Shown in pieces: positions 15,851 to 41,550 of a DNA stretch of 64,000 nucleotides. The notes under the pieces are model-generated. The model searched no databases, was not told where the DNA came from, and was given only the letters and a program-made list of their open reading frames with translations. Source of the stretch: a phage; the sequence record PZ445442.1. One strand, written 5' to 3'. Position 1 is the stretch's first letter, and the number at the start of each line of letters is the position of its first letter. The position numbers and the translations under genes are program-made.

Positions 15851-16231
15851 TTATGACACTTTGACATAGCGCTCTGACAAAGCTGGGAAGCCAAAAGTAG
15901 TGCCTATACTACCGTACGCTATCCACCATTGAAGTTCATCGTGACACCATTTTCCGATCAGAAAGGTGCTGGGGTAGCGGGTCAGTATTTTGGCATAAGC
16001 TTTAGGATCTGCATCTTCTGGGATAATGATGCTTGGAATATCTTTGTTATGACCACAGCAGCAGTTTAGCGTTTTCAAACCTGCTGCCCACAAACTCATG
16101 ATAGGCTTAGCCATACACTTATCAAGGCACACACGTTTTTTGCCGTCACGAAGATTTTTAGGCACATCAACGATAACATTTGGATGCTTGGCACCTTTCA
16201 CTTTCCAATTATAGGATTTACACTTGCACAT
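15851..16231 (-). CDS. hypothetical Cys-rich protein
   Basis: 126 aa with many Cys (CKCK, CCCGH, WCH); likely metal-binding. Confidence 0.4.
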   Translation of the reverse strand: MCKCKSYNWKVKGAKHPNVIVDVPKNLRDGKKRVCLDKCMAKPIMSLWAAGLKTLNCCCGHNKDIPSIIIPEDADPKAYAKILTRYPSTFLIGKWCHDELQWWIAYGSIGTTFGFPALSERYVKVS

Positions 16232-24432: not shown

Positions 24433-24702
24433 ATGTTATACCAGCAATATGAACTTCGTGCAGAAAAAGAGTTAAATTTTGACAAAGATATTCACAGATA
24501 TTATTATGGGAAAGTTAGAGGGCAAGCAAGAAAGTGTACTCCAACACTCTTTTATGCCAGCAGACGACTAGCGCCAGAAGAGGCAACAGCAGAAAGGGTT
24601 GCGTACAACTGGAGAGTCACGTATGATATTGACAGATTCGATGTGATATCTGTTTTGGAAAACTTTGAAAACACTTACACACAAGTAGAGGACTTTTACT
24701 AA
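24433..24702 (+). CDS. hypothetical protein
   Basis: 89-aa ORF, RBS AAGGAG. Confidence 0.45.
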   Translation: MLYQQYELRAEKELNFDKDIHRYYYGKVRGQARKCTPTLFYASRRLAPEEATAERVAYNWRVTYDIDRFDVISVLENFENTYTQVEDFY

Positions 24703-25886
24703 TGTCAAGAAACGTATTCGAAAGTGGTCAAATCACTGTCCGTGAGTTGCCAGCTATTATTCAGTTTGCCCAACGTCATAGCCGATCTGTCCTAATTTTG
24801 GGACCAATGGGTGTGGGTAAAAGCCAGGTGATGAAGCAGATCGCTGATAATATGTTCGGTGAGCGAGATGACAACCTTGTTGACGTGCGACTGTCAGATA
24901 AAGATCCTGCCGACTTATCTGGGCTACCTATCCCTGTAGAAGCGGATGGAACTACACGTACAGTGTTTGCAATTCCAGAATTTTGGCCTGCGGATCCTGA
25001 CTGGAGCGGAATTATCTTTCTGGATGAGCTCACTCATGCAGATAACTACCTGCAAAAGGTTGCAATGCAAATTATGCTTGACCACAAGTGCGGCACCTAT
25101 GCATTCCCTAAGGGTTCTGTTTTTGTGGCTGCGGGTAACCGTTCTACAGATGGTGCGGTTCTTTCGGCGCTCGAAGCCCCTCTGGCTAACCGTTTTATCA
25201 TTGTAGAGGTTACAAGCAATGCAGAGGTGTTTATTGAGGACTACGCATTCCTCAACGGGGTTCACTCCTCTGTAATTGGGTATCTGAAAAGAGTTCCATC
25301 AGCTATTGATAATTATGAGGCTATGGCTGAGATTAATTGTCCATCTTTTGCCACACCACGATCTTGGGTTGCTGCATCTGACATCTTGCACGATTTTGAC
25401 AGCGGTATTATTTCTGACGCTATGGCCCGTGTTCTTCTGCAAGGTGCTATTGGTCACACTGCAGCGGTAGAGATCTGGACATACCACACCAAGAAACGCA
25501 ATTTACCGGAAATCGGTCGGATTATGGCAGGTGGCTGCAAAGAATACGTAGGTCCTAAGCAGCCAGACATTTTGTGGATTCTTGGATCTGAAGGTTGTAT
25601 CGCTATTCGTAATATGATGGAAAATGCAAGTATCTCAGACGAAGATCTTGTCAGCTGTGTGGCAAACTTCCTCGATTTCCTTTGGGAAAACTTCAAGGAC
25701 GAGAACCGAGATTTTGTATTCTCAGTCTTTATGGCGATGATGAAACCTAATGCCTTAGGAAATGCCTTGCTTATCGGTAAAGGGCGTGACAAGATTGTTG
25801 CTCAGCTGATCAAAGCATACCCAAACCTGATGAAGATTGTAAAAGAGTTTGGTGAAGAGTTTAGCGCCATTTTGGCTAAAGCTTAA
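24702..25886 (+). CDS. MoxR-like AAA ATPase
   Basis: 394 aa; Walker A LILGPMGVGKSQ and Walker B IIFLDELTHAD. Confidence 0.6.
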   Translation: MSRNVFESGQITVRELPAIIQFAQRHSRSVLILGPMGVGKSQVMKQIADNMFGERDDNLVDVRLSDKDPADLSGLPIPVEADGTTRTVFAIPEFWPADPDWSGIIFLDELTHADNYLQKVAMQIMLDHKCGTYAFPKGSVFVAAGNRSTDGAVLSALEAPLANRFIIVEVTSNAEVFIEDYAFLNGVHSSVIGYLKRVPSAIDNYEAMAEINCPSFATPRSWVAASDILHDFDSGIISDAMARVLLQGAIGHTAAVEIWTYHTKKRNLPEIGRIMAGGCKEYVGPKQPDILWILGSEGCIAIRNMMENASISDEDLVSCVANFLDFLWENFKDENRDFVFSVFMAMMKPNALGNALLIGKGRDKIVAQLIKAYPNLMKIVKEFGEEFSAILAKA

Positions 25887-25896
25887 GGGGGGTTGT

Positions 25897-26277
25897 ATGG
25901 CTAAAGTAGGTAAGCGGGGAAACTACCTGGTGGTATTGACCGAGGAGCCGGAGAAGGAGTACGAATGCAGCTCCACTTGCGTGATCGATATCCGAGAAAA
26001 AGATGTAGATGAAATCTGGTTTAAAATATTGGACGCTTGCGATAGCAGTGATTATTTCTTCATTTATGTCAACGATAAGGCTGGATTCTTCCATGACGAC
26101 GGAGAGTTGCCGTATGAAATCTATGAACTTGTAGAGGCTTGCCATCGTGGAGATGCGGAGTTGTTTGGCCTACGGCTGAAAAGCGGTAAATTCTTCTATC
26201 AAGATGAGTGCATGAATCTTCATAACTTTGTAGAGGGAACTTGCAACGATGGAGAGATTTTGGCACACTACGATTAA
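25897..26277 (+). CDS. hypothetical protein
   Basis: 126 aa from ATG at 25897 (RBS AAGGGGGG); the track's longer ORF begins inside the previous gene. Confidence 0.45.
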   Translation: MAKVGKRGNYLVVLTEEPEKEYECSSTCVIDIREKDVDEIWFKILDACDSSDYFFIYVNDKAGFFHDDGELPYEIYELVEACHRGDAELFGLRLKSGKFFYQDECMNLHNFVEGTCNDGEILAHYD

Positions 26278-26288
26278 TTTCTAAGACC

Positions 26289-26317
26289 TCCCCCGCTTCG
26301 GCGGGGATTTTCTATTT
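26289..26317 (+). terminator. Rho-independent terminator
   Basis: CCCCGC-TTCG-GCGGGG stem-loop followed by ATTTTCTATTT. Confidence 0.6.
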
Positions 26318-26326
26318 GGAGTCATT

Positions 26327-26827
26327 GTGAAAATTAAGATCTTTGCTATTATTTTGAGCGCACTTTTATCGCTGCCTGTTGTTGCAGCACCAAAACAAAA
26401 AGTATATCATACTTGCAAGCCCTCAGATACTAAGGAAAACATTCTGGCATGCAATATCTACAGGGAGGCTAGAGGGGATGGCACGATGGGTATGCTGGCA
26501 TCAGGGTTTGCCACACTAAACAGGAAATCTCACCCCAAATACCCAGACACTATAAGAAAGATTGTCTACCAACCTAACCAGTTTTCGTGGACAAACCACG
26601 GCAAAACTTTTAAGGTGACAGAAAAAGATTCATGGGATCACGCTAAAAGTCTTGCAAAGATGCTTCTAAAGGTCTATAATAACAACCATGTTGCATACAT
26701 GGCTATGGACATAACAGGTGGAGCAACACACTACCATACAACCAAAGTACGACCGAAATGGGCAAAAAAGATGCAGAGGACAGCTCAATTCGGGAGTCAT
26801 ATCTACTACAAGGAGCGCAATAAATGA
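26327..26827 (+). CDS. secreted cell-wall hydrolase (SleB-like), candidate endolysin
   Basis: 166 aa; N-terminal signal peptide (ILSALLSLPVVAAP); CNIYREARGDG...ATLNR resembles the SleB/Hydrolase_2 family; GTG start. Confidence 0.55.
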   Translation: MKIKIFAIILSALLSLPVVAAPKQKVYHTCKPSDTKENILACNIYREARGDGTMGMLASGFATLNRKSHPKYPDTIRKIVYQPNQFSWTNHGKTFKVTEKDSWDHAKSLAKMLLKVYNNNHVAYMAMDITGGATHYHTTKVRPKWAKKMQRTAQFGSHIYYKERNK

Positions 26828-28806
26828 TTGTAAACAGTAATGAAACTAAAGCAGTACTAACCGGAAATATGGAGGTCACCAGGGGCTCAATTTCTCTGAA
26901 CAAAGAGACTTTTGGGCTAATCATTAAAGGGATTTACGAAGATAAGGTGCTGGCAAGCTGCCGTGAACCAATCTTCAATGCTGTGGACTCCCATGTTGAG
27001 TCTGGACGGGGTGATGTACCTATCATCATTCACTCTCCTACAGACCTTGAACCATACTTCTTTGTGCAGGACGTTGGATTGGGCATGTCAGAAGAGATGG
27101 TCCGCAACACTTTCATGAATCTCGGGGAGTCAACCAAGCGCAACAGCAACGCTCTGGTAGGTAATAAAGGTGTTGGTTCAAAGGCTCCGTTCAGTATGGT
27201 GGACACTTTCGATGTTATCAGTGTGCACAATGGTGTTGAAAGCACATATCTATTGTTCTTGGATCAGGGTATCCCAAACGTTACCAAGATCCGCGAGCGA
27301 AAGACTGAAGAGCACAACGGGGTAAAAGTTCAGTTCCATGTTAAGAAAGAGCATGTTCTGAAATATCGCACTGCTATTGCGTCATGCCTACGCTATGCAA
27401 AGTTTCCGTTTACCGTTACCGACCCTATGACCAGTAAGATGCTGGAAGGTGACAAGGTTGAGGCGCAGTATCGCTACGAGAAAGATGGTTGGAAAATGAC
27501 TATCCTGAAAGGTTATACCAGCTCTGATGAGAGCCGTGTGGTGATGGGACACCAACCTTACCGCTCTAAGTTTCTGGAAACATTGACAGACTACCCTGCA
27601 ATCTGTGTAGAGATCCCTATCGGGGATTGCAATATTAACCCTGGGCGCGAATGGACCATAGAGGGGCACGACGATGGTGGATTCCAGGATCGCCTGGAGG
27701 CCTTTGTCAAAGAAGGTATACGTCTTCGTGGGGCAGAAGTTGTTGCGGAATTGGAGACAGCAAAAACATCCTCAGAAGCACGTGAGATGATGAAGAACAG
27801 TGGAGTGTTCGGACACATCTTCGGCAAAAACTTTATGTGGAACCGTTGGGAAGAAACAGGGCTTGGCGACTTAGGCGATTGTGAAATTTTCGCTGGCGGC
27901 TTAAATAAAGGCCGCATAGGCTATGCTCGTTACGGAAAGTCGGAGTTCTTACGAGGTGTATACCTTGTATTTAACGACGGAGACGGCAAATATAACCGAA
28001 ATAAGTGTAACTACTTAAGCGAGATCACCGGACGCAACGTTTTCTATTGCCGTAACACGGATCTGATGGAAGAGTTTAAAGAAGCGGCACACCACCCGTT
28101 CTTTGCAGATACGGTCAAATTGTTATCAGAGCTCCCTCGCCGTCCTGTAAAGAAAGGTGAAACAAAAACTCACTATGAGCCAGGGTATTGGGTTAAAAAA
28201 CTTGAGAAAGATGGTTACTTCCGTCGTGAGCGTATTACTAAGGCAGAGTTCAAGAAGATTAAGCACTGCATTCCTTATGAGGGTGATATCCAACGTGGAA
28301 GTTGTTGGCTGGGACAGCTAAGTAACATCTACCAGCAAAATTATGACCGTGTGCGTGCGGCACTCAAGATTCCTGAAGGGGAAGATCTGTACCTGGTATC
28401 AGAATCTCGTCTGCTTTGGACTGATCCTGATTGCCAGTATGTTACAGAGAAAAATGTGGAACATTTGTTGAAAGAGGACGCCTGGAAATTCTTACTGACT
28501 CGCGCAGCAAATGAAACTTCATATGACAGCCTGTATAGACAATTAGGGAAAATTATCCCCATGCAAGATTTTGGAAATTATCGGCCACATTTCCACAAGT
28601 GGGAAGGTAACACCGCGTGGAAGCACAGTGAGCTAAATCATCGTGCCAAAATCTTAATCGCCAACCGAGTCAAGTGCGGGAAGGCCTATATTGCAAGATT
28701 GGAAAAGAAATATCCACTTTTGAAGCATGTGGGCTTGAAATATTGGGACACTCCTGCTATGATTGAATACCGTGAACTGATCGACGCAAAGAATAACACC
28801 AAATAA
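26824..28806 (+). CDS. GHKL-type ATPase (Bergerat fold) protein
   Basis: 660 aa; N-box EPIFNAVDS, G1 box VQDVGLGMS, G2 box GNKGVGSKAPF in the N-terminal 150 aa. Confidence 0.5.
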   Translation: MIVNSNETKAVLTGNMEVTRGSISLNKETFGLIIKGIYEDKVLASCREPIFNAVDSHVESGRGDVPIIIHSPTDLEPYFFVQDVGLGMSEEMVRNTFMNLGESTKRNSNALVGNKGVGSKAPFSMVDTFDVISVHNGVESTYLLFLDQGIPNVTKIRERKTEEHNGVKVQFHVKKEHVLKYRTAIASCLRYAKFPFTVTDPMTSKMLEGDKVEAQYRYEKDGWKMTILKGYTSSDESRVVMGHQPYRSKFLETLTDYPAICVEIPIGDCNINPGREWTIEGHDDGGFQDRLEAFVKEGIRLRGAEVVAELETAKTSSEAREMMKNSGVFGHIFGKNFMWNRWEETGLGDLGDCEIFAGGLNKGRIGYARYGKSEFLRGVYLVFNDGDGKYNRNKCNYLSEITGRNVFYCRNTDLMEEFKEAAHHPFFADTVKLLSELPRRPVKKGETKTHYEPGYWVKKLEKDGYFRRERITKAEFKKIKHCIPYEGDIQRGSCWLGQLSNIYQQNYDRVRAALKIPEGEDLYLVSESRLLWTDPDCQYVTEKNVEHLLKEDAWKFLLTRAANETSYDSLYRQLGKIIPMQDFGNYRPHFHKWEGNTAWKHSELNHRAKILIANRVKCGKAYIARLEKKYPLLKHVGLKYWDTPAMIEYRELIDAKNNTK

Positions 28807-28816
28807 GGAGACAGCT

Positions 28817-30022
28817 ATGATTTTCATCTACGAACATTTCAAAACTCGTAAAGAAGCACGCGACCGCCGTGCAGAACTTGAGAAGAAGGGTTTCACATGT
28901 GCTATTGAGAAAGGTACTACAACATGGACACTGGCAGTAGGTGCCCCAGAGCTGTTTGATCCTGACCGAGACAGTGTCTGCTATACCCGTGAGGATTTTG
29001 AAACCCGCGAAGAGGCCCGTTTATTCCGCTACGGACTGGAAGACAACGGTAAGTACGCCATGATCTTAGATTCAGGTGAAGGTTCCGTTAAACGTTGGGG
29101 CGTGGTATACCCACTGTGTGTTGTTCACGGTGTGGGGGTCACTGGGGTAGCAATCAAGTCAGAAGAACCTTTAGTAGAAGTCAAAGATCCGGTGCTGGAA
29201 GTGGTGAGCAGTGTGTCTCAGCAACAGTCTCGAAGCATCGAGCCTTTGGTAGTTATTTGCGGGGAACTCCTCCAGATCACCTGCAACGAAGGCATTTTTG
29301 AAATTCGCCGCAGCGAAAGTGAGGAAGTTTACCAGAAAGTCTTCGACCATATTTCTGTTCAGGAATATGATGAGGCAATTGGTGAAATCCTTGTCTGGCT
29401 GGAACGCAAGAATGAGTTCACCACACTTGCAGACAACCTGATCATGAAAGATGGTAAGCTCTACTACTACGGTGTAGAGATGCGATCCACCATTGCAAAG
29501 AAAATTGAGGAAGATTATGTAGATGGAACACTGGACGACCGATATGTTAAATTCCTTGTCCGTCTGCTACGCAACCCGTCTGCAAAATCTGTGAACATGC
29601 TCTACGATTTCATGCAGGCTAATGACATCCAGGTTGCAGAAGATGGTCGAATCATTTGCTATAAGGGGGTTCAGTTTAACGGGAGCAGGTGGGTGGATTG
29701 GCACAGTGGTAAAGTTCCACAATACCAGGGTGCTTTTGTGTCCATGCCTCGTGACTTTGTAGAAGATGATCCGGAAGCTGCGTGTTCTTATGGCCTGCAC
29801 TGCGCCAGCAAAGAGTATGCAGCGGGCTATGGCACTGTAATGATGGTTATGGTTGACCCTGCGGATGTGGTTAGTGTGCCATACCAACACAACAGTGCTA
29901 AGTGCCGTGCATGCCGCTACGAAATCGTAGCAGCACCGGAATCACGCAAAGATGGCGATCCGATTGAATACGTAGTTGACCGTGATGGTAACATCATCGA
30001 CATTATCTACGAGGAGGCGTAA
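28817..30022 (+). CDS. hypothetical protein (between GHKL ATPase and helicase)
   Basis: 401-aa ORF with two N-terminal repeats (FKTRKEARDRRAELEKKGF / FETREEARLFRYGLEDNGKY). Confidence 0.5.
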   Translation: MIFIYEHFKTRKEARDRRAELEKKGFTCAIEKGTTTWTLAVGAPELFDPDRDSVCYTREDFETREEARLFRYGLEDNGKYAMILDSGEGSVKRWGVVYPLCVVHGVGVTGVAIKSEEPLVEVKDPVLEVVSSVSQQQSRSIEPLVVICGELLQITCNEGIFEIRRSESEEVYQKVFDHISVQEYDEAIGEILVWLERKNEFTTLADNLIMKDGKLYYYGVEMRSTIAKKIEEDYVDGTLDDRYVKFLVRLLRNPSAKSVNMLYDFMQANDIQVAEDGRIICYKGVQFNGSRWVDWHSGKVPQYQGAFVSMPRDFVEDDPEAACSYGLHCASKEYAAGYGTVMMVMVDPADVVSVPYQHNSAKCRACRYEIVAAPESRKDGDPIEYVVDRDGNIIDIIYEEA

Positions 30023-31392
30023 TGGAAAAAGGGCAGTATGACGTAGGCACAGATGCTGCCCTCATTGCAATCATGAGTGGTGAGAATGTCTTCGTTTCAG
30101 GACCTGCAGGTTGTGGGAAGACGTATCTCATCAACATGATCCAGTCAATGTATGGAGACTCTTGCATAACGGTTGCCCCGACAGGGGTAGCCGCTTTAAA
30201 CGTTAATGGAGCAACAGCACACCGAACATTCGATCTTGCAGCAGGTGTGAGCATGGAGTCGGACTGGACCGCAATAAGGGCAAAAACAGCAAAGCCTTTG
30301 AAAAGCAAGGCATTTACCATCCTAATTATCGATGAAATCTCTATGATCCGTGCTGATAAGTTTATAGAGATGGATAGGAAACTCCGCTTCCTTCGAAAAA
30401 ATGACAAACCTTTCGGAGGCATACAGGTCATATTGTTTGGCGATTTTTACCAGGCACCTCCTGTTGTCTCTTCTATGGAGAAGGAAGCCTACTTCAACTT
30501 CTACCATACGGACCTGTGTTGCTACACCGAATCTTGGAAAGAGCTTGACCTCCACAACATAGCCCTAATAGATCAGTTCCGACAGGAGTCTATTCGATTT
30601 GCCACAATGCTCAACTGTGTTCGTGAGGGTCGTCGCATAAAAGAGGTTGTAGCAGAACTTAATGCTCGCTGTTACAAAGGCGGTGTACCAACAGACGCTC
30701 TCACAATTTGCGCCACCAACAAACAAGCAGAGGAAGTGAACAGAAGGTTCTATGATGCCATCAACGCCCCAGAGAAGGTATACACTGGTGAAATGAAGGG
30801 TAAGTTTCCCTCCACCCTGCCAGTTGAGCAGGAGATGAAGTTGAAAATTGGCATGAAAGTTATGATAACTGCCAACGATGTTGACCCGACGCACAAAGTA
30901 CCTTATTATGTTAACGGAACACGTGCCACAATTGTTAAATTTAAGAACAAGGCGGTGGTGGTAGAGCTTGAAGATGGAACACAGGTTGACATAGAGCAGA
31001 GGTTGTGGGAAAATAACGAGTATAAGCCCTCTCAGAGATACAACATTGCAGAAAGGAAGATGGAGAAGTTTATAGAGAGGGTAGTGATTGGGTCATACAA
31101 GCAACTTCCTCTGAAATCTGGGTACGCCGTAACATCTCATAAAAGTCAAGGACTTACGCTAGATTGTTACAACCTAGACCTTGGAAAGAACGGAGCTTTC
31201 TCTCCTGGGATGACGTATGTCGCTTTGAGTAGAGTTAAGACAATACAAGGAATAAACTTGTTGCGTCCCCTAAGAGAAGTTGACATTATTGTTGACCCGC
31301 GAGTAGTAGAGTTTTACAATACAACATTCCCTGACTTAGACAAAATTGTCAGGAAAGATTTTGAAACCAGAGCAGAAGAGGGGGACGTATGA
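30022..31392 (+). CDS. Dda/RecD/Pif1-like SF1 DNA helicase
   Basis: 456 aa; Walker A VSGPAGCGKT, Walker B IIDEISM, motif III GDFYQAPPV, motif TSHKSQGLT. Confidence 0.7.
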   Translation: MEKGQYDVGTDAALIAIMSGENVFVSGPAGCGKTYLINMIQSMYGDSCITVAPTGVAALNVNGATAHRTFDLAAGVSMESDWTAIRAKTAKPLKSKAFTILIIDEISMIRADKFIEMDRKLRFLRKNDKPFGGIQVILFGDFYQAPPVVSSMEKEAYFNFYHTDLCCYTESWKELDLHNIALIDQFRQESIRFATMLNCVREGRRIKEVVAELNARCYKGGVPTDALTICATNKQAEEVNRRFYDAINAPEKVYTGEMKGKFPSTLPVEQEMKLKIGMKVMITANDVDPTHKVPYYVNGTRATIVKFKNKAVVVELEDGTQVDIEQRLWENNEYKPSQRYNIAERKMEKFIERVVIGSYKQLPLKSGYAVTSHKSQGLTLDCYNLDLGKNGAFSPGMTYVALSRVKTIQGINLLRPLREVDIIVDPRVVEFYNTTFPDLDKIVRKDFETRAEEGDV

Positions 31393-31730
31393 GTTTGTGG
31401 AGAAATATCGTTAACTACGTGTGTGGCAATCCGACTCCTGAAGAGAAGGATGTTGTGATTCACGATTTTACTAAAAGATCTCGTGAAAAAGATCTACTGC
31501 TAACAAAGGTGACTGATAAAGATCCTGCAGTAGGGGACTGGGCAGGTTTTGCGTTTACATCGGACAAATACACCTTTAACAAAGGTGACTACCTTGTTGT
31601 GGATTTTAACGAAGACATTGAGGGTGCTGAACCTTACTATCAAACCCTTATTGTTGCAGGGTGTGTTAATCTCTCTGCAGGTATGCACAGTTTGATTCTT
31701 TTTGAGCTTGACTCTGAAGACCTTGAGTAG
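31389..31730 (+). CDS. hypothetical protein
   Basis: 113-aa ORF overlapping helicase stop. Confidence 0.4.
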   Translation: MSLWRNIVNYVCGNPTPEEKDVVIHDFTKRSREKDLLLTKVTDKDPAVGDWAGFAFTSDKYTFNKGDYLVVDFNEDIEGAEPYYQTLIVAGCVNLSAGMHSLILFELDSEDLE

Positions 31731-31736: not shown

Positions 31737-31791
31737 GTGAGTATAAAGGGGAGGCACTCCTCCCCACAAAAACTAAGGAGAGCACCAAACG

Positions 31792-33118
31792 ATGAGTAAA
31801 ACCAAATTAGAACTAACCTGGATAGGTAAAAACGAGCGCAAAAAGTTAGAGCCACACATTTTGTTAGAAGATTCTAGCAAGTCTTACCACAGCCAGAAAG
31901 TGACCGAAAACGATATTTTTTGATAATAAACTGATTTTTGGAGATAACTTATTAGCATTGAAGGCGCTAGAGCAAGAGTATGCAGGCAAAGTGAAGTGTG
32001 TTTACATAGACCCACCATTCAATACTGGAAGGGCTTTTGAGCACTACGATGATAGCCTTGAGCATTCCATTTGGCTGGGCTTAATGAGGGATAGGTTAGA
32101 AATAATTCGTAATCTTCTAAGTGATGATGGGGTAATATTCGTTCACTTAGATGATTGCGAAATGGCGTATTTAAAAGTTTTGATGGACGAGATTTTTGGT
32201 CGTGCAAATCAGTTAAATACCATATCGATGACCACAAATTCCCCTTCGGGATTTAAGGCAACAGGAGCCACAGTTTTCTCCACAGCAAACTTTTTGCTTG
32301 TATATGCAAAAGATCACACCCAGAAACCGCTTAACAAAATCTATATACCTAAAGGGTACGATACAGGATATAACAAATACCTATTAAACCCGGATGACCA
32401 TTATAAAAATTGGACGTGGTGCAGTATTGCCGATGCGTTTGCAAAGGCCAATGGCTATAAGGATGCAAAAGAAGCCAAGAAAAAACTACCTGACACATTC
32501 GATGATGAATTAGCACAATTCGCAATTGATAATGCAGAACGTGTATTTCAATCTGTTGCAATTGGTGGTGGTGCTAAAATAAAGAGAAAAGAAACTATCG
32601 AGAAGTCAAAGAAAGATAGGGATAAGGTTTATGTACATCCAAATGAGGATGTTGAAGGATTTTATATCGCAAATGGTAGGCAAATGGTCTTTTACTCCAA
32701 TAGGCTTTTGGAAATTGACGGTGAGATGCAACCTGCGGAACTAATAACTGATGTTTGGACAGACATTGGTTGGAATGGAATAGCAAATGAAGGCGGCGTT
32801 AGTTTCAAAAATGGGAAAAAACCAGAAGCGCTTTTGAAGCGGATTTTCGAAATGTGCACGCGAGAAGGCGATTTGGTATTGGATTCATTCGGTGGTTCGG
32901 GAACTACTGCTGCTGTAGCTCATAAGATGAAAAGACGCTGGATCTCAATCGAGCTAGGTGATCATTGTCATACCCATATTATTCCGCGCTTGGAAAAAGT
33001 GATCGATGGCGAAGATCAAGGTGGTATTTCTAAGTCTGTAAACTGGCAAGGTGGTGGTGGCTTCCGTTATTACAAACTTGCCCCGGCCTTAGTTGCGAAA
33101 GATAAGTCTGATCAATAA
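31792..33118 (+). CDS. N6-adenine DNA methyltransferase (Mod-like), interrupted by +1 frameshift at T6 tract 31916-31921
   Basis: N-terminal 43 codons (MSKTKLELTWIGK..ENDIF) stop at TGA 31921; the +1 frame continues FFDNKLIFGDNLLALKALEQ..VKCVYIDPPFNTG (DPPF motif IV) to 33118; removing one T restores a single ORF. Confidence 0.6.
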
Positions 33119-34378: not shown

Positions 34379-35140
34379 TTGAAATTTATCTACAAAGAAC
34401 ACTACCACAAAGGTGTTGTGTGGAGTCTATTTGACGGGTCTGGTGGTGCAGTCATTGACTGGGCAAAAGCTGGGTACCTGTGCCTGTGCTTTAATGCAGA
34501 AGGCGCTGATCACGGCAGTTATGCAGAGGTGATCACCGATCATCCCAACATTCACTATGTGGACTATTGGATTGACCCGTGGTTCCCTCAGGAAACTTTT
34601 TGCATGTATCCGGCTCCAGATTTTATTCTTGCATTTCCTCCGTGCACGCATTTAGCGGTATCAGGTGCTGCACATTTTAAGAAAAAGCTGGCTAAGGACC
34701 CCATGATCCAAATTAATGCTGTAAAGGATGCTCGGGTTGCGGAAGAGCTGGGAGAGATTTACGATTGCCCGTGGCATGTAGAGAATCCTGTGGGTGTTAT
34801 GTCCACACTGTGGCGCAAACCTGATTACCGTTTTCACCCTTCGGATTATGGCGGGTATTTACCGGAAGATGATGTAAACCCATGGTTTCCTGAATTTATA
34901 GCTCCACGTGATGCCTATCCAAAAATAACTTGCGGCTGGATAGGTAATGGATTTATAATCCCAGCCACAAAACCTGTCCCGCAAATAGTTGACGCGGTTA
35001 GTGGGTACTCCATGCAACACGCTAAGCTGGGTGGAAAGAGTGCAAGAACGAAGATGATCCGAAGCCTCACACCACGTGGCTGGGCAAAAGCTGTATTCTT
35101 AGCAAACGAGCCTGTAGTAAGGAGAAGGGCCAATGGTTGA
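34379..35140 (+). CDS. DNA (cytosine-5)-methyltransferase-like protein
   Basis: Motif I SLFDGSGG, motif IV-like FPPCTHLAVSG (PC dipeptide), motif VI-like HVENPVG; probable TTG start at 34379 after RBS AGGAG (track ORF starts 34349). Confidence 0.5.
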   Translation: MKFIYKEHYHKGVVWSLFDGSGGAVIDWAKAGYLCLCFNAEGADHGSYAEVITDHPNIHYVDYWIDPWFPQETFCMYPAPDFILAFPPCTHLAVSGAAHFKKKLAKDPMIQINAVKDARVAEELGEIYDCPWHVENPVGVMSTLWRKPDYRFHPSDYGGYLPEDDVNPWFPEFIAPRDAYPKITCGWIGNGFIIPATKPVPQIVDAVSGYSMQHAKLGGKSARTKMIRSLTPRGWAKAVFLANEPVVRRRANG

Positions 35141-35804
35141 CTGGAGCAAGTATTTCACCTACAGTGACGGCAAACTGTTCTGGGCGTACACTGCAAAAGC
35201 CGGAAGGGGCAGGGTTATACATTACGCAGGTGAGGAGGCCACAGGCACAGATAAAAATGGCTATAGAGTGATATATGTGTCAGGTGTTGGGAGTGTTCGT
35301 AGGCATAGAATAGTTTGGGAGATGCATTACGGGGAGATACCTGAGGGACTTGTTGTGCGGCACAAGAACGACATAGCGGGCGATGATAGGGTAGAGAACT
35401 TAGTCCTAGGTACACAGGGCGATAATGCACGAGACATGATCTACAGTGACAAACTGAGCATTAACAATACCTCAGGGTGTAGAGGTGTACGCTACCATAG
35501 AGGCATAAAAAGATGGATTGCATCTGTTGGAGATATATACTTAGGGTGTTTTAAGACAAAAGAGGCTGCAATTGAATGCAGAAAGTTATGGGAGAAGGGA
35601 AAATTCGTCCCGCAAGAGTTGGATGTTAGAAACACTAGCGGTGTAACAGGGGTGTTCTATGTGCCGAGCTCTGGAAGGTGGAGAGTCAGAGTGCAAAGCG
35701 GCAAAAAGAGAAAGAGCTATGGCACTTACAATACTTTAGAAGAAGCAAAAACTGTAAGGGATAGAGTGATGAAAGAGATTGAGGAGTTTAAAGATGGGGA
35801 ATAA
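35133..35804 (+). CDS. HNH homing endonuclease with AP2-type DNA-binding repeats
   Basis: 223 aa; HNH region RHRIVWEMHYGEIPEGLVVRHKNDIAGDDRVENL; two AP2-like repeats (GCRGVRYHRGIKRWIASV, SGVTGVFYVPSSGRWRVRV). Confidence 0.6.
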   Translation: MVDWSKYFTYSDGKLFWAYTAKAGRGRVIHYAGEEATGTDKNGYRVIYVSGVGSVRRHRIVWEMHYGEIPEGLVVRHKNDIAGDDRVENLVLGTQGDNARDMIYSDKLSINNTSGCRGVRYHRGIKRWIASVGDIYLGCFKTKEAAIECRKLWEKGKFVPQELDVRNTSGVTGVFYVPSSGRWRVRVQSGKKRKSYGTYNTLEEAKTVRDRVMKEIEEFKDGE

Positions 35805-37930: not shown

Positions 37931-40321
37931 ATGAGTATGTGGTCGTTCGATTTTGAGTCATCCGGTTTGCTGGAAGACCCAGATCTTTATTATCACTGCG
38001 GTCTGTTTAAAGAGCTGAATAAGAACCGTTTTATGCTGTTCCTTCCTCTAAATGACCGCACACACTACTCCGAGGAGGATATAGAAAAGGCTAAGAACTT
38101 CATTCTGGCAAAGAAAACTCTTTATAAAGATTTTGAAGTTCGCATAGCAGATTTTTCGGAGTTGGAAGGTTGGCTTACAGGCAATTCTGACTGGTCACCA
38201 ACAGCTTTGAACTGCCATAACTGCTACAGTTATGACTTTATGCTGATGGAAAGATTATCCGGTATTCATTTTGATATGTTCCGTGATCCTAAATGCATGG
38301 GGACTATCAACGATCACCAGGTTAACCTGTTTGATACGTTGGCGATGAGCCGAATCTTGTGGCCTGATCGCCCTTTACCAAAAGGTTGTCCGGACTCTGT
38401 ATTCAACCCGGTTACTAAGAAAATGCAGCCTGTTGGTCCCCACGGCCTTATGGCATGGGGCTACGCCCTTGGTAACCAGAAAGTTCAAATTGATGACTGG
38501 CGCGATCTTCCGTTGTGGAAGTATGTGGATCGTGTATTCGAGGACGTTATCATCCAGGAGCTGCTCTGGAAAGAGCTGGTAGCGGAATCAAAAGGTGTAT
38601 TCTACGGCAAATCTGACATGCAGAACTTTATGTACGATCCTGCCAAAGAGAAGCCGAAAGGGTTCAAGAAGATCACCTGGAAGAACGCATTACGCCGAGG
38701 CATGCTGCAGCACTTCCTGATGGAGCTGCAGGCCCGTCAGGGTGTGTATTTTGACATAGATGGAGCTATTGCTTTACGTGACCGTTGCGATGCGTGGATG
38801 AAAGAAATCGCTGATCGTGTTGAACCACAACTACCTTTAAAAGAGTTGTCAATGTCTCAGCGGCCCAAGTTCCCTGAAAAGCCGTTTAACCAAGATGGGA
38901 CAATCTCCAATAATGGTTGGAAATGGTTAAAAGATAAGCTTGGCTATCCTGTAGATATGAGCGCTTTAGAGTTCAAAGCCCCGCCTAAGCGAGCATTTAC
39001 CTCCACAGGGGATGTCAGCAAGATGGGGATAAAATGGTGTGAAGAGATGGGCTGCAAAGACCCTGATAAGATGGCTGATTTCTTGAGAGGCTATATTAAG
39101 GGCACTTCCACACCACAACCTTTACCTAAAGAGCTGATGGATCAGGCAATAAGTGATCTGCAGCAGAAGCGAATGCCTGACTGCAAGATACCTATGAAAA
39201 TCAGCAATCAGGACGACATTAAGCGGTATCTGATCAGTGCTGGCTGGCTCCCGACGATGTGGAGAACTAAGGATGTAACTAAAGACAGCAAGAAGAAAGC
39301 CCTACCTGATGCAGATGTTGATGCACGAGTATATGCATATATGGACGAGCTTTTAGAGTCAGAGTATTGTGATCTGATTATCAACTTCTGGAACAAAACT
39401 GATGCTAAGTTCCAGACAACCGTGCACAAGTTCCGAAGCTTTCCTAACTCCGAAAGGATTAAAAAGGAAGTATTCGGGAAAATACGTAGAAAAGCTAGGG
39501 CACTTATTACTTCTCCGCAACTGAAAGATACGTTTGGACACCTATGCCCGAATCTTGAAAAATTGAACGGAGAGATGGCTAAAGATATCGTCTTGTGGTT
39601 ATCTTTGCGAAACCGCAGATCGGTACTTGATCCAATCAAGGAGGATAAGGTTGATACTGGTCTTCTTAATCACCCACGTTTGAAGATTGACCATAAGCTT
39701 CCTGCTAAAAGCTCTGGATTAACAAACACTTCCAGACAGAAACACAGTATTTGTGCAAACATGCCTAAACCATCTCCTAAAGTGGTCATGGGTAAAGAGA
39801 TGCGTAGTCTGTGGGGTGTTCCTCCAGGATACTTTGAGATCGGTATTGACGGGTCCAACTTAGAGCAGCTTATCGGGGCTTGGGGTGCCTTTGAGTTCGA
39901 CAACGGATTGTATTATGATGTTGTAAGTAACGGGGACGCACACCAAAACAATGCTGAAGCATATACAAAAGTGGCAGGCAGAGAGGTGTCTCGTAACGAC
40001 GGTAAACCTATCACGTATGGGGTTATGTATGGGGCACAAAAAGATAAAGTTGCAGATATGCTGGACATCTCTCCAGAACTGGGGCAGAGAGTAATTGATG
40101 CTCTCTGGGATGCCAACCCAGGTCTTAAGGGGCGCAAAGAGGATCTGGAGAAATTCTGGGAAGCAACAGGTAAGAAATTTATCTACTCTTTTGACGGGCA
40201 TGCCATTTGGACCCGCTCTAAACACTCTTTGCTTAATGCATATCAGCAAAATGGCGGTGCATCGTTGTGCGACTTGGTCGGAATCCTCATGCACCACCAA
40301 ATGGTGAAGCGTGGATGGTAT
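37931..40321 (+). CDS. family A DNA polymerase, exon 1 (3'-5' exo + polymerase motifs A and B)
   Basis: Exo I FDFESSGL; motif A GIDGSNLEQLIGAW; motif B KPITYGVMYGAQ; track ORF runs 12 codons further into the intron to a stop at 40360. Confidence 0.65.
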
Positions 40322-41196
40322 GATGAAGGTGTTCGTCGTATTATTTATTACCATAAATAACATTGTGGCTTCGTGCAGTGATGCACGTCGAAAACCTCTT
40401 TAATTGACGGGAAGGCTAAGTTGACTTTTACACCTAAACATGGTAAAAGCTCAATATGCTAATCCGCAGCGAAGACTAAAGGGGTGTAGTTAAAATGGCT
40501 AGATCAGTTGATTATCACGGATATACCGTGTTTGATGATGGAACAATACCTTTATCGAAACGTGATCATACAACAATGTTCTGTTTTGATAATGGTCGAG
40601 GTTACCTTTGCGTAACCATGTTCATCGAGGGGAAGCAGTGCACAAAAGGTGTCCACCACTTGGTTGCTGAATGCTTTGTATCAAACCCTGATCCTGAAAG
40701 GCTCACATGGGTGAACCATAAGGACGGAAACAAATACAACAATGCATACTGGAACCTTGAATGGACCACCCCTGGTGGAAATATCAAACACGCTTATGAT
40801 AATGACCTCAGAGTAAGGCCAGTCGGTGAGTATAATGCCAACGCTGTACTGACCGAGGATGAGGTAACGGAGATTTGCGAACTGTTACAAAGTGGTTTAC
40901 GACAATGCGAGATTAGGGATCTTGGGTATCCTTATGAGACGGTCAGAGCCATAAAGCAAAGAAGACAGTGGAAACATATCTCTAAAAACTACACCTGGTA
41001 GTAACGTTCAGAGACTATCGAAAGCATAGCGCCAACATAAATTGGTGCGAAGAAGCGAGTAGAGTAGGCCAGCAAGTGCGGTCGAAATGGGAGGTGCCTT
41101 GGTAACAAGGTAGTGAGATAGTCCGATCCATACAGGAAACTGTATGGCTGTGCACGTAATGGTGCGGGGTAGCTTAACGACCTACCTGAACTATTG
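40322..41196 (+). mobile_element. group I intron with HNH homing endonuclease ORF, inside the DNA polymerase gene
   Basis: Elements matching the conserved P (AATTGACGGGAA, 40402-40413), Q (AATCCGCAGC, 40461-40470), R (GTTCAGAGACTATC, 41006-41019) and S (GAGATAGTCC, 41115-41124) sequences; P9-like hairpin CCATACAG-GAAA-CTGTATGG (41128-41147); U at -1 (40321) and terminal G (41196); boundaries inferred. Confidence 0.6.
40495..41001 (+). CDS. intron-encoded HNH homing endonuclease
   Basis: 168 aa; HNH region GVHHLVAECFVSNPDPERLTWVNHKDGNKYNNAYWNLEW; lies between intron Q and R elements. Confidence 0.65.
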   Translation: MARSVDYHGYTVFDDGTIPLSKRDHTTMFCFDNGRGYLCVTMFIEGKQCTKGVHHLVAECFVSNPDPERLTWVNHKDGNKYNNAYWNLEWTTPGGNIKHAYDNDLRVRPVGEYNANAVLTEDEVTEICELLQSGLRQCEIRDLGYPYETVRAIKQRRQWKHISKNYTW

Positions 41197-41550
41197 GATG
41201 AGTACCAACTTCAAGTGCCTGACACACCTAAGTATAAAACCGTATACACCTTCGACACAATTGAAGAGCTGGAAACATTTAAGGCCAAGCAGGAGGCTAA
41301 ACTTCATGTGTTCGACGGTCATAAGTACAAAAAGGCACGCAAGGATGAGGATGGAAACGAAGTGGTTGACAAGGACGGAAATACGGTGTACGATCCTATC
41401 CTGAACGATGACGGAAAGCTTGAACTTATCTGGAGCCCTGTGGGTGAAATGGTGGTGCATTGCTTCTGGCAAGCTTCTAAAATGATGGGAGTCCCGTTCC
41501 AGATCACAGGTGAATACTTGTGTGGTCGTAATTGGGGTGATTGTCACTAA
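41197..41550 (+). CDS. family A DNA polymerase, exon 2 (C-terminal region)
   Basis: Begins DEYQLQV, which joined to exon 1 gives GWY|DEYQLQV (motif C-like); ends GRNWGDCH with terminal His, as I recall for T7 gp5 and E. coli Pol I. Confidence 0.55.
   Translation, partial: DEYQLQVPDTPKYKTVYTFDTIEELETFKAKQEAKLHVFDGHKYKKARKDEDGNEVVDKDGNTVYDPILNDDGKLELIWSPVGEMVVHCFWQASKMMGVPFQITGEYLCGRNWGDCH

Follow-up and report, generated by a model that had tools for sequence, protein, structure and literature searches.

The closest described relatives of the genes studied here belong to the rII locus, which is known from phage T4 as Benzer's locus and acts against RexAB. In proteins of the RIIA family, a GHKL ATPase forms the N-terminal part and the C-terminal region is variable (Iyer et al. 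2021, PMC7824862). In the Vequintavirus EdH4, knockdown of rIIA/rIIB lowers plating on hosts with λ RexAB, whereas the genes are dispensable without Rex; furthermore, rII pairs that are less than 40% identical all neutralise the same RexAB (PMC11879866). RIIB of phage T6 is by itself enough to trigger a bacterial gasdermin system, and its expression is toxic (PMC10312443), and the RIIA/B orthologues of phage Bas63 have been linked to countering QatABCD (PMC11482910). Here, we analysed a stretch of phage DNA of 64,000 nucleotides (sequence record PZ445442.1; the whole stretch is called the window below) and describe two of its genes, which are the rIIA-rIIB locus of the Vequintavirus EmilHeitz/Bas49, together with the helicase gene that follows them.

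A first-pass annotation of the window, made from the sequence alone, had grouped these three genes into one module. We conclude instead, with a probability of about 0.9, that rII is an accessory counter-defence pair and that the helicase, a predicted member of the Pif1 family, lies next to the pair through descent and is separate from it, not a third component.

Identity of the locus

The window shares 100% identity with Escherichia phage EmilHeitz (Bas49, MZ501062.1), an rV5-like Vequintavirus of the BASEL collection. The record labels the three genes as 'membrane integrity protector rIIA' (bas49_0066, 660 amino acids, positions 26824..28806 of the window), 'membrane integrity protector rIIB' (bas49_0067, 401 amino acids, 28817..30022) and 'DNA helicase' (bas49_0068, 456 amino acids, 30022..31392), all on the + strand. 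The three open reading frames (ORFs), their coordinates and strand, and every motif quoted from them in the first-pass annotation were found where it had placed them. Its statement that the arrangement could not be assigned to a characterised system did not hold, since the pair is rIIA-rIIB and is annotated as such in MZ501062.1. Thus, the rII locus of the window is already known from textbooks, carries its rII labels in the source record and has experimental data behind it in near-identical phages. A GHKL ATPase found next to a helicase in a phage should therefore be compared with RIIA and RIIB before a new module is claimed.

The RIIA ATPase

In the profile search, RIIA matches PHROG 612 'RIIA' over residues 1-656 of 660 (E 1.7e-124). 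Homologues were detected by tblastn in 2877 phage records, T-even phages among them; the match to rIIA of Tequatrovirus BW-1, for example, has 28.3% identity over 191 amino acids (E 1e-19). The Bergerat-fold (GHKL) ATP-binding domain (residues ~27-190, 26902..27393) is recognised by Pfam HATPase_c_3 (E 1.8e-8) and contains the motifs EPIFNAVDS at residue 48 (N-box), VQDVGLGMS at residue 81 (G1) and GNKGVGSKAPF at residue 113 (G2). Among 49 distinct RIIA sequences from diverse lineages, E48, N52 and D55 of the N-box, D83 of G1 and G113, G116 and G118 of G2 are invariant. The same is true of Y246, R275 and E276, which lie in a second, transducer-like domain (residues ~196-285, 27409..27678).

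By sequence profile, the nearest relatives of the ATPase are the N-domains of Hsp90/TRAP1 (E 4e-7). The AlphaFold model of RIIA has a mean predicted local distance difference test score (pLDDT) of 83, with the C-terminal region also modelled confidently, and 250-290 of its residues align with two-domain ATPase modules from several families. The structural matches (values as tabulated) are 17.4 for TRAP1/Hsp90, 16.8 for ParE, 16.3 for topoisomerase II of phage T6, 15.9 for MutL, about 15 for MORC2/3, 14.9 each for Topo VI-B and SMCHD1, and about 5 for histidine kinases. Judged by this model, none of the GHKL families appears clearly closest. Taken together, RIIA is predicted to be a GHL-type ATPase with a Bergerat and a transducer-like domain, in which the putative catalytic residues are all intact. 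The recognition of a GHKL/Bergerat ATPase in the first-pass annotation is thus borne out by the Pfam match, the motifs that are invariant in the 49 sequences and the structural matches.

We considered several more specific identities for RIIA. The GHKL and transducer module is shared with type II topoisomerases, but we found neither a Toprim domain in RIIA nor a Toprim or GyrA-like partner gene nearby, and a topoisomerase subunit was rejected, as the first-pass annotation had also judged. Hsp90 was rejected since the NCBIfam HSP90 match reaches 18 bits against a cut-off of 455 bits and Hsp90-specific domains are absent. The same applies to MutL and MORC, for which there was no family match and whose family-specific domains are absent.

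The C-terminal region of RIIA (residues ~287-660, 27682..28803) is conserved only within the rV5-like lineage. In tblastn, homologues from outside this lineage align with no more than about the first 420 residues, usually with 190-280, and a structure search with the model yielded no match in the PDB for residues ~290-660, outside the ATPase module. With intact ATP-binding motifs and a variable C-terminal region, RIIA fits the build described for its family.

The conserved core and the N-terminal repeat of RIIB

RIIB matches PHROG 609 'RIIB' over residues 132-375 (E 6.4e-60) and has homologues in 2863 phage records, including rIIB of BW-1 (34.3% identity over 204 amino acids, E 1e-26). The part that aligns to RIIB of T4-like, N4-like, Kuttervirus, Streptomyces and Vibrio phages is a core of residues ~166-375 (29312..29941), in which C323, G326, H328, P348, D350, K362 and R364 are invariant in 50 sequences. 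A four-ligand zinc site formed by C323, H328, C363 and C366 was rejected, as C363 is present in 18/50 and C366 in 41/50 sequences. No relative of the core with a solved structure was found, and in BFVD the RIIB model matches exclusively RIIB-family proteins. The profile and structure searches that the first-pass annotation had proposed have thus identified both families and have placed the GHKL domain beside TRAP1/Hsp90, ParE, MutL and MORC.

At the N-terminus, RIIB carries a tandem beta-alpha-beta-beta (SPOR-like) repeat (residues 3-104, 28823..29128). The internal duplication noted in the first-pass annotation is real: residues 6-25 and 59-78 are identical at 11 of 20 positions, the repeat is kept in rV5-like homologues, and in the model it folds into two beta-alpha-beta-beta units. 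The repeat is lineage-specific, and it was not detected in RIIB of other lineages. Hence, RIIA and RIIB each bear lineage-specific appendages around a conserved rII engine, which can be defined as the RIIA ATPase with Y246, R275 and E276, and the RIIB core with C323, G326, H328, D350, K362 and R364, a core that has no solved fold.

The Pif1-family helicase

The third gene is predicted to encode a Pif1-family SF1B helicase. The protein matches Pfam PIF1 with 113.4 bits (cut-off 25.9 bits, E 1.5e-32) and aligns with solved Pif1 structures in the PDB across about 400 residues, which is near full length (E 1e-48 to 1e-65). The SF1 motifs are present, including Walker A (GPAGCGKT at residue 27), Walker B (IIDEISM at 102), motif III (GDFYQAPPV at 140) and TSHKSQG (TSHKSQGLT at 371). 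The protein also carries PFGGIQVILFGDFYQAPPV, in keeping with the Pif1 signature region.

The first-pass annotation had called this protein a Dda/RecD-like SF1 helicase. The assignment to SF1B stands, whereas the Pif1 family fits better than Dda or RecD. The match to RecD2 (TIGR01448) reaches 42 bits against a cut-off of 500 bits, and the 20 PDB sequence matches at E<=1e-3 include no chain named as Dda. The PHROG label of the helicase, 'Dda-like', is a broad family name. Because the phage also encodes a separate primase/helicase, the Pif1-like protein is presumably an accessory helicase.

Two orthologues among the IMG/VR relatives are much longer, with about 790 (L014:11180-13555) and 764 amino acids (L022:11708-13999). 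Both have an insertion of ~330 residues within Walker A (GPGG|C...N|[CS]GK[TS]), which is an intein signature; no Pfam domain was found in the insert. The allele of the window is intein-free (GPAGCGKT).

Gene packing around rII

The locus is part of a block of five genes that is flanked by two strong hairpins. The first gene encodes a SleB/CwlJ-type cell-wall hydrolase (bas49_0065, 26327..26827, + strand; Pfam Hydrolase_2, E 2e-19), which has a hydrophobic N-terminal segment (residues 3-21) and is syntenic across the rV5-like lineage. The last is an ORF of 113 amino acids without assigned function (bas49_0069, 31389..31730, + strand; PHROG 11869, E 2e-78). Upstream of the block, a hairpin scan and the sequence revealed a terminator-like hairpin, CCCCGCttcgGCGGGG, followed by a T-run (26291..26306, + strand), and the EdH4 record lists a terminator at the corresponding position. 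Just downstream lies the G+C-rich hairpin GGGGAGGcactCCTCCCC (31748..31765), which was scored on the minus strand and whose role as a terminator on the + strand is putative. A promoter scan was uninformative, with 27 sites found versus 21 +/- 5 expected.

Between rIIA and rIIB there is a gap of 10 nucleotides, and rIIB overlaps the helicase gene by 1 nucleotide. The tight coupling of the three genes that the first-pass annotation had emphasised is thus real, yet it is not peculiar to them, as both flanking genes are packed equally tightly: the hydrolase gene overlaps rIIA and the helicase gene overlaps the 113-residue ORF by 4 nucleotides (ATGA) each.

The neighbouring hydrolase raises the question of whether rIIA and rIIB could be lysis-inhibition or timing genes, tied to the overlapping hydrolase gene and to the SPOR-like N-terminus of RIIB, a peptidoglycan-binding type of domain. 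This agrees with the PHROG category 'lysis' and the database label 'RIIA/RIIB lysis inhibitor', and the 4-nucleotide overlap of the hydrolase gene with rIIA is kept in the rV5-like lineage. The Pfam SPOR match is marginal, with 22.4 bits against a cut-off of 21 bits when the repeat is scanned alone. We consider this explanation extremely unlikely.

Gene order across phage lineages

To compare gene order, we used 57 loci that each encode an RIIB relative: nine annotated GenBank loci and 48 IMG/VR contigs. Almost all loci with enough flanking sequence have rIIA directly upstream of rIIB and in the same orientation. There are two exceptions: one RIIB homologue has no RIIA detected in the 9.7 kb upstream (L032:9767-10735), and at another locus about 2.4 kb with two ORFs lie between rIIA and rIIB (L042:5432-10792). 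Natural RIIA-RIIB fusions also exist, for example in RB43 (1049 amino acids), and the family PHROG 609 covers RIIA as well as RIIB. As is the convention for the T4 map, many rV5-like records in GenBank have been opened at the junction of rIIA and rIIB to give a linear sequence.

The helicase has a different distribution. Using phmmer, we found a Pif1-like helicase less than 10 kb from rIIB in all 16 rV5-like loci and in none of the ~40 loci of other lineages, including T4-like phages, Kuttervirus, Streptomyces phages and jumbo Vibrio phages. With jackhmmer, a single further helicase came up: in an N4-like phage, a distant SF1B member is encoded two genes downstream of rIIB and just before the DNA polymerase gene. 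Thus, of the co-occurrence of three genes that the first-pass annotation had proposed to examine, the rIIA-rIIB part extends nearly throughout the 57 loci, whereas the helicase accompanies the pair in the rV5-like lineage alone. We conclude that the helicase gene adjoins rIIB only through gene order inherited in the rV5-like lineage, where it heads the replication-gene block. The simplest reading is that rII heads replication-gene blocks in some lineages, and that there is no dedicated three-gene system.

These distributions bear directly on the possibility that the GHKL ATPase, the 401-residue protein and the helicase form a three-component machine for DNA remodelling or anti-defence. Such a machine would be in line with the tight packing and common orientation of the genes, with a gene order that rV5-like phages retain even where protein identity drops to about 35-40%, with the distant SF1B helicase near rIIB in the N4-like phage, and with the DNA-manipulating ATPases among the fold relatives of RIIA. 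However, Pif1-like helicases are missing near rIIB in the ~40 loci of other lineages, HNH genes part rIIB from the helicase gene in three rV5-like loci, the flanking hydrolase gene and 113-residue ORF are packed just as tightly, and none of the PADLOC models matches RIIA or RIIB. Together with the separate phenotype of the helicase in phage Bas54 described below, this largely refutes the machine, which we regard as very improbable. The three-gene module of the first-pass annotation is therefore not retained.

The genes that part rIIB from the helicase gene encode HNH-type endonucleases of 230 amino acids and lie exactly between the two genes (L004:6786-7469, L020:10804-11493 and L022:11023-11712). 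Selfish elements are prone to insert at the rIIB-helicase junction.

A known defence system was considered as well and rejected: the best PADLOC match of RIIA has an E-value of 0.005, which is not significant, RIIB has none, and the helicase co-occurs with rII in one lineage only.

Experiments in near-identical phages

The rII genes of two close relatives have been studied experimentally. The proteins of EdH4 are 98.5% (RIIA), 97.3% (RIIB) and 99.6% (helicase) identical to those of the window. The guess of an anti-defence module in the first-pass annotation was thus correct in that rIIA and rIIB counter RexAB in EdH4 (PMC11879866), whereas the system is not uncharacterised. Bas54 (MaxBurger) has the same gene layout, with identities of 97.7% for RIIA, 96.0% for RIIB and 99.6% for the helicase; its data come from HIDEN-SEQ transposon mapping (preprint and supplement).

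On K-12, the Bas54 genes for the MoxR ATPase, hydrolase, rIIA, rIIB and helicase were all classed as non-essential by HIDEN-SEQ; the orthologue of the 113-residue ORF, which is translationally coupled to the helicase gene, is the sole gene of the block classed as 'Intermediate', with 15/20 TA sites hit. When a clinical (uropathogenic) isolate is compared with K-12, insertions in the helicase gene bas54_0068 are depleted about 80-fold (log2 fold change (log2FC) -6.32, adjusted p 0) and those in the MoxR ATPase gene have a log2FC of -7.23, while rIIA (-0.01) and rIIB (-0.34) are unaffected. Because only the helicase gene of the three is depleted, its phenotype is distinct, and insertions in rIIA and rIIB have no polar effect on it. 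The three-component machine is at odds with this result, as the helicase is conditionally essential on an isolate where rIIA and rIIB insertions are neutral. The depletion of the helicase gene is reported in the supplement only; the word 'helicase' has no occurrence in the main text of the preprint. In the supplement (file 9, Data S6/S7), the sheet 'K-12 vs CFE303' has a console line in which the library is given as '311', and both sheets show the same numbers for bas54_0060-0079, so that one table seems to be duplicated or mislabelled.

The MoxR-type ATPase is encoded three genes upstream of rIIA (24702-25886) and is 100% identical to bas54_0063, which according to the HIDEN-SEQ preprint is required against DS-28, a predicted defence system of E. 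coli CFE311. The rII neighbourhood may be an early region rich in anti-defence genes. Because the MoxR ATPase is needed against DS-28, rIIA and rIIB counter RexAB, and the helicase gene is depleted on the uropathogenic isolate (Bas54 and EdH4 data), the genes from the MoxR ATPase through hydrolase, rIIA and rIIB to the Pif1 helicase could make up an 'anti-defence island' in Vequintavirinae, with every gene acting independently against a host barrier of its own. We propose this tentatively, as it is less probable than not by a good measure. With similar reservation, the Pif1-like helicase might in this island be a host-specific counter-defence or escape factor, beyond a replication accessory. 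Its own host-specific requirement, seen in Bas54, is the remaining lead from this locus.

Function of the rII pair

ATPases of the GHL family undergo ATP-driven dimerisation. By analogy, RIIA would dimerise and hydrolyse ATP like other GHL ATPases, and would act in a complex with RIIB, its obligate partner. As a counter-defence pair, rIIA-rIIB would be dispensable on defence-free hosts and enable growth on cells with abortive-infection systems such as lambda RexAB. The RIIA ATPase and the RIIB core might act generically on the infected cell, keeping Rex-type membrane-depolarising effectors from firing, and the variable regions of both proteins would add lineage- or host-specific functions. Generic action, without binding of one specific defence protein, is favoured because rII pairs of less than 40% identity neutralise the same RexAB while having no more than the ATPase module and the RIIB core in common; still, we put this part of the proposal at somewhat below even odds.

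Several points weigh against the counter-defence pair as we describe it. The RexAB phenotype of EmilHeitz is carried over from EdH4 and the essentiality from Bas54, by analogy between near-identical phages. The Bas54 supplement amounts to one usable host comparison, probably CFE311. The mechanistic part of the explanation is inferred. A hydrophobicity check found no convincing transmembrane segment in RIIA or RIIB, and thus an action at the membrane receives no direct support. Furthermore, the closest structural relatives of RIIA are mostly DNA enzymes, rII lies among replication genes in several lineages, and the N4-like phage has its SF1B helicase two genes downstream of rIIB.

A serious rival is that rII acts on DNA or nucleoprotein. 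RIIA would then be an ATP-gated clamp, similar to MutL, MORC or the ATPase of topoisomerase II, with RIIB as a DNA-binding partner, and the pair would hide or remodel the trigger of Rex-type systems, an intermediate of replication or recombination. The relatives of RIIA and the genomic surroundings named above are compatible with such a role. We consider it less likely, at about one chance in four. The reading of rII as an accessory counter-defence pair beside an independent helicase concerns the role of the genes, and it is this reading that we retain.

Further observations in the window and related records

Downstream of the block, the gene of an N6-adenine methyltransferase (31793-33118) is split by one extra T. 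The T-run has six residues here (31914-31919) and five in phages nomo and EdH4, where the gene is a single coding sequence of 1326 nucleotides that starts from the ATG equivalent to 31793. In the window, the upstream frame ends after 44 codons, and the record annotates the truncated coding sequence only. A sequencing error in the homopolymer, a genuine pseudogene and an enzyme truncated at its N-terminus are all possible explanations of the split.

Further downstream, according to the annotation, a putative homing endonuclease (bas49_0075, 35133-35804) lies just upstream of the primase/helicase gene, and the DNA polymerase coding sequence (bas49_0077, 37931-41550) is joined from two pieces, which suggests an intervening sequence in the polymerase gene. 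The coordinates of these two genes are the record positions minus 32682. A tRNA scan of the window found no tRNA.

Between positions 16000 and 22000, the GC and AT skew switch sign. From about 18000, the change coincides with a run of minus-strand genes, among them genes for an anti-sigma factor and a putative metallopeptidase; this run stops just short of the early block on the + strand with rII.

Lastly, 16 unannotated GenBank records (MG0656xx, 'Campylobacter phage', host Campylobacter jejuni) are 96-99% identical over 6-7 kb to positions 24702-31730 of the window. The Campylobacter host label of these records looks doubtful.

Comparison with known systems

Compared with GHL and MORC-type ATPases, RIIA has no Toprim domain, no MutL C-terminal domain and no Hsp90 C-terminal domain. 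The helicase shares the PIF1 profile and Walker A/B with Pif1 helicases such as BaPif1 of Bacteroides and yeast and human PIF1, and it differs from them in being phage-encoded and compact (456 amino acids), without accessory N- or C-terminal domains. T4 Dda and RecD2 are only distant relatives of it.

The closest systems are rIIA and rIIB of the Vequintaviruses EdH4 and Bas54, which are 96-98.5% identical and have the same layout. They differ from EmilHeitz by an amino-acid divergence of a few percent and are practically the same genes, characterised experimentally. The T4 locus contains the same two families in the same order and orientation as the window, and T4-like rII shares with it the N-terminal GHKL ATPase of RIIA and the C-terminal core of RIIB. 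In contrast to T4, the C-terminal ~370 residues of RIIA and the N-terminal repeat of RIIB are specific to rV5-like phages. The neighbours differ as well: in T4-like phages rII lies next to genes of topoisomerase II subunits, whereas here it lies between a cell-wall hydrolase and a Pif1 helicase.

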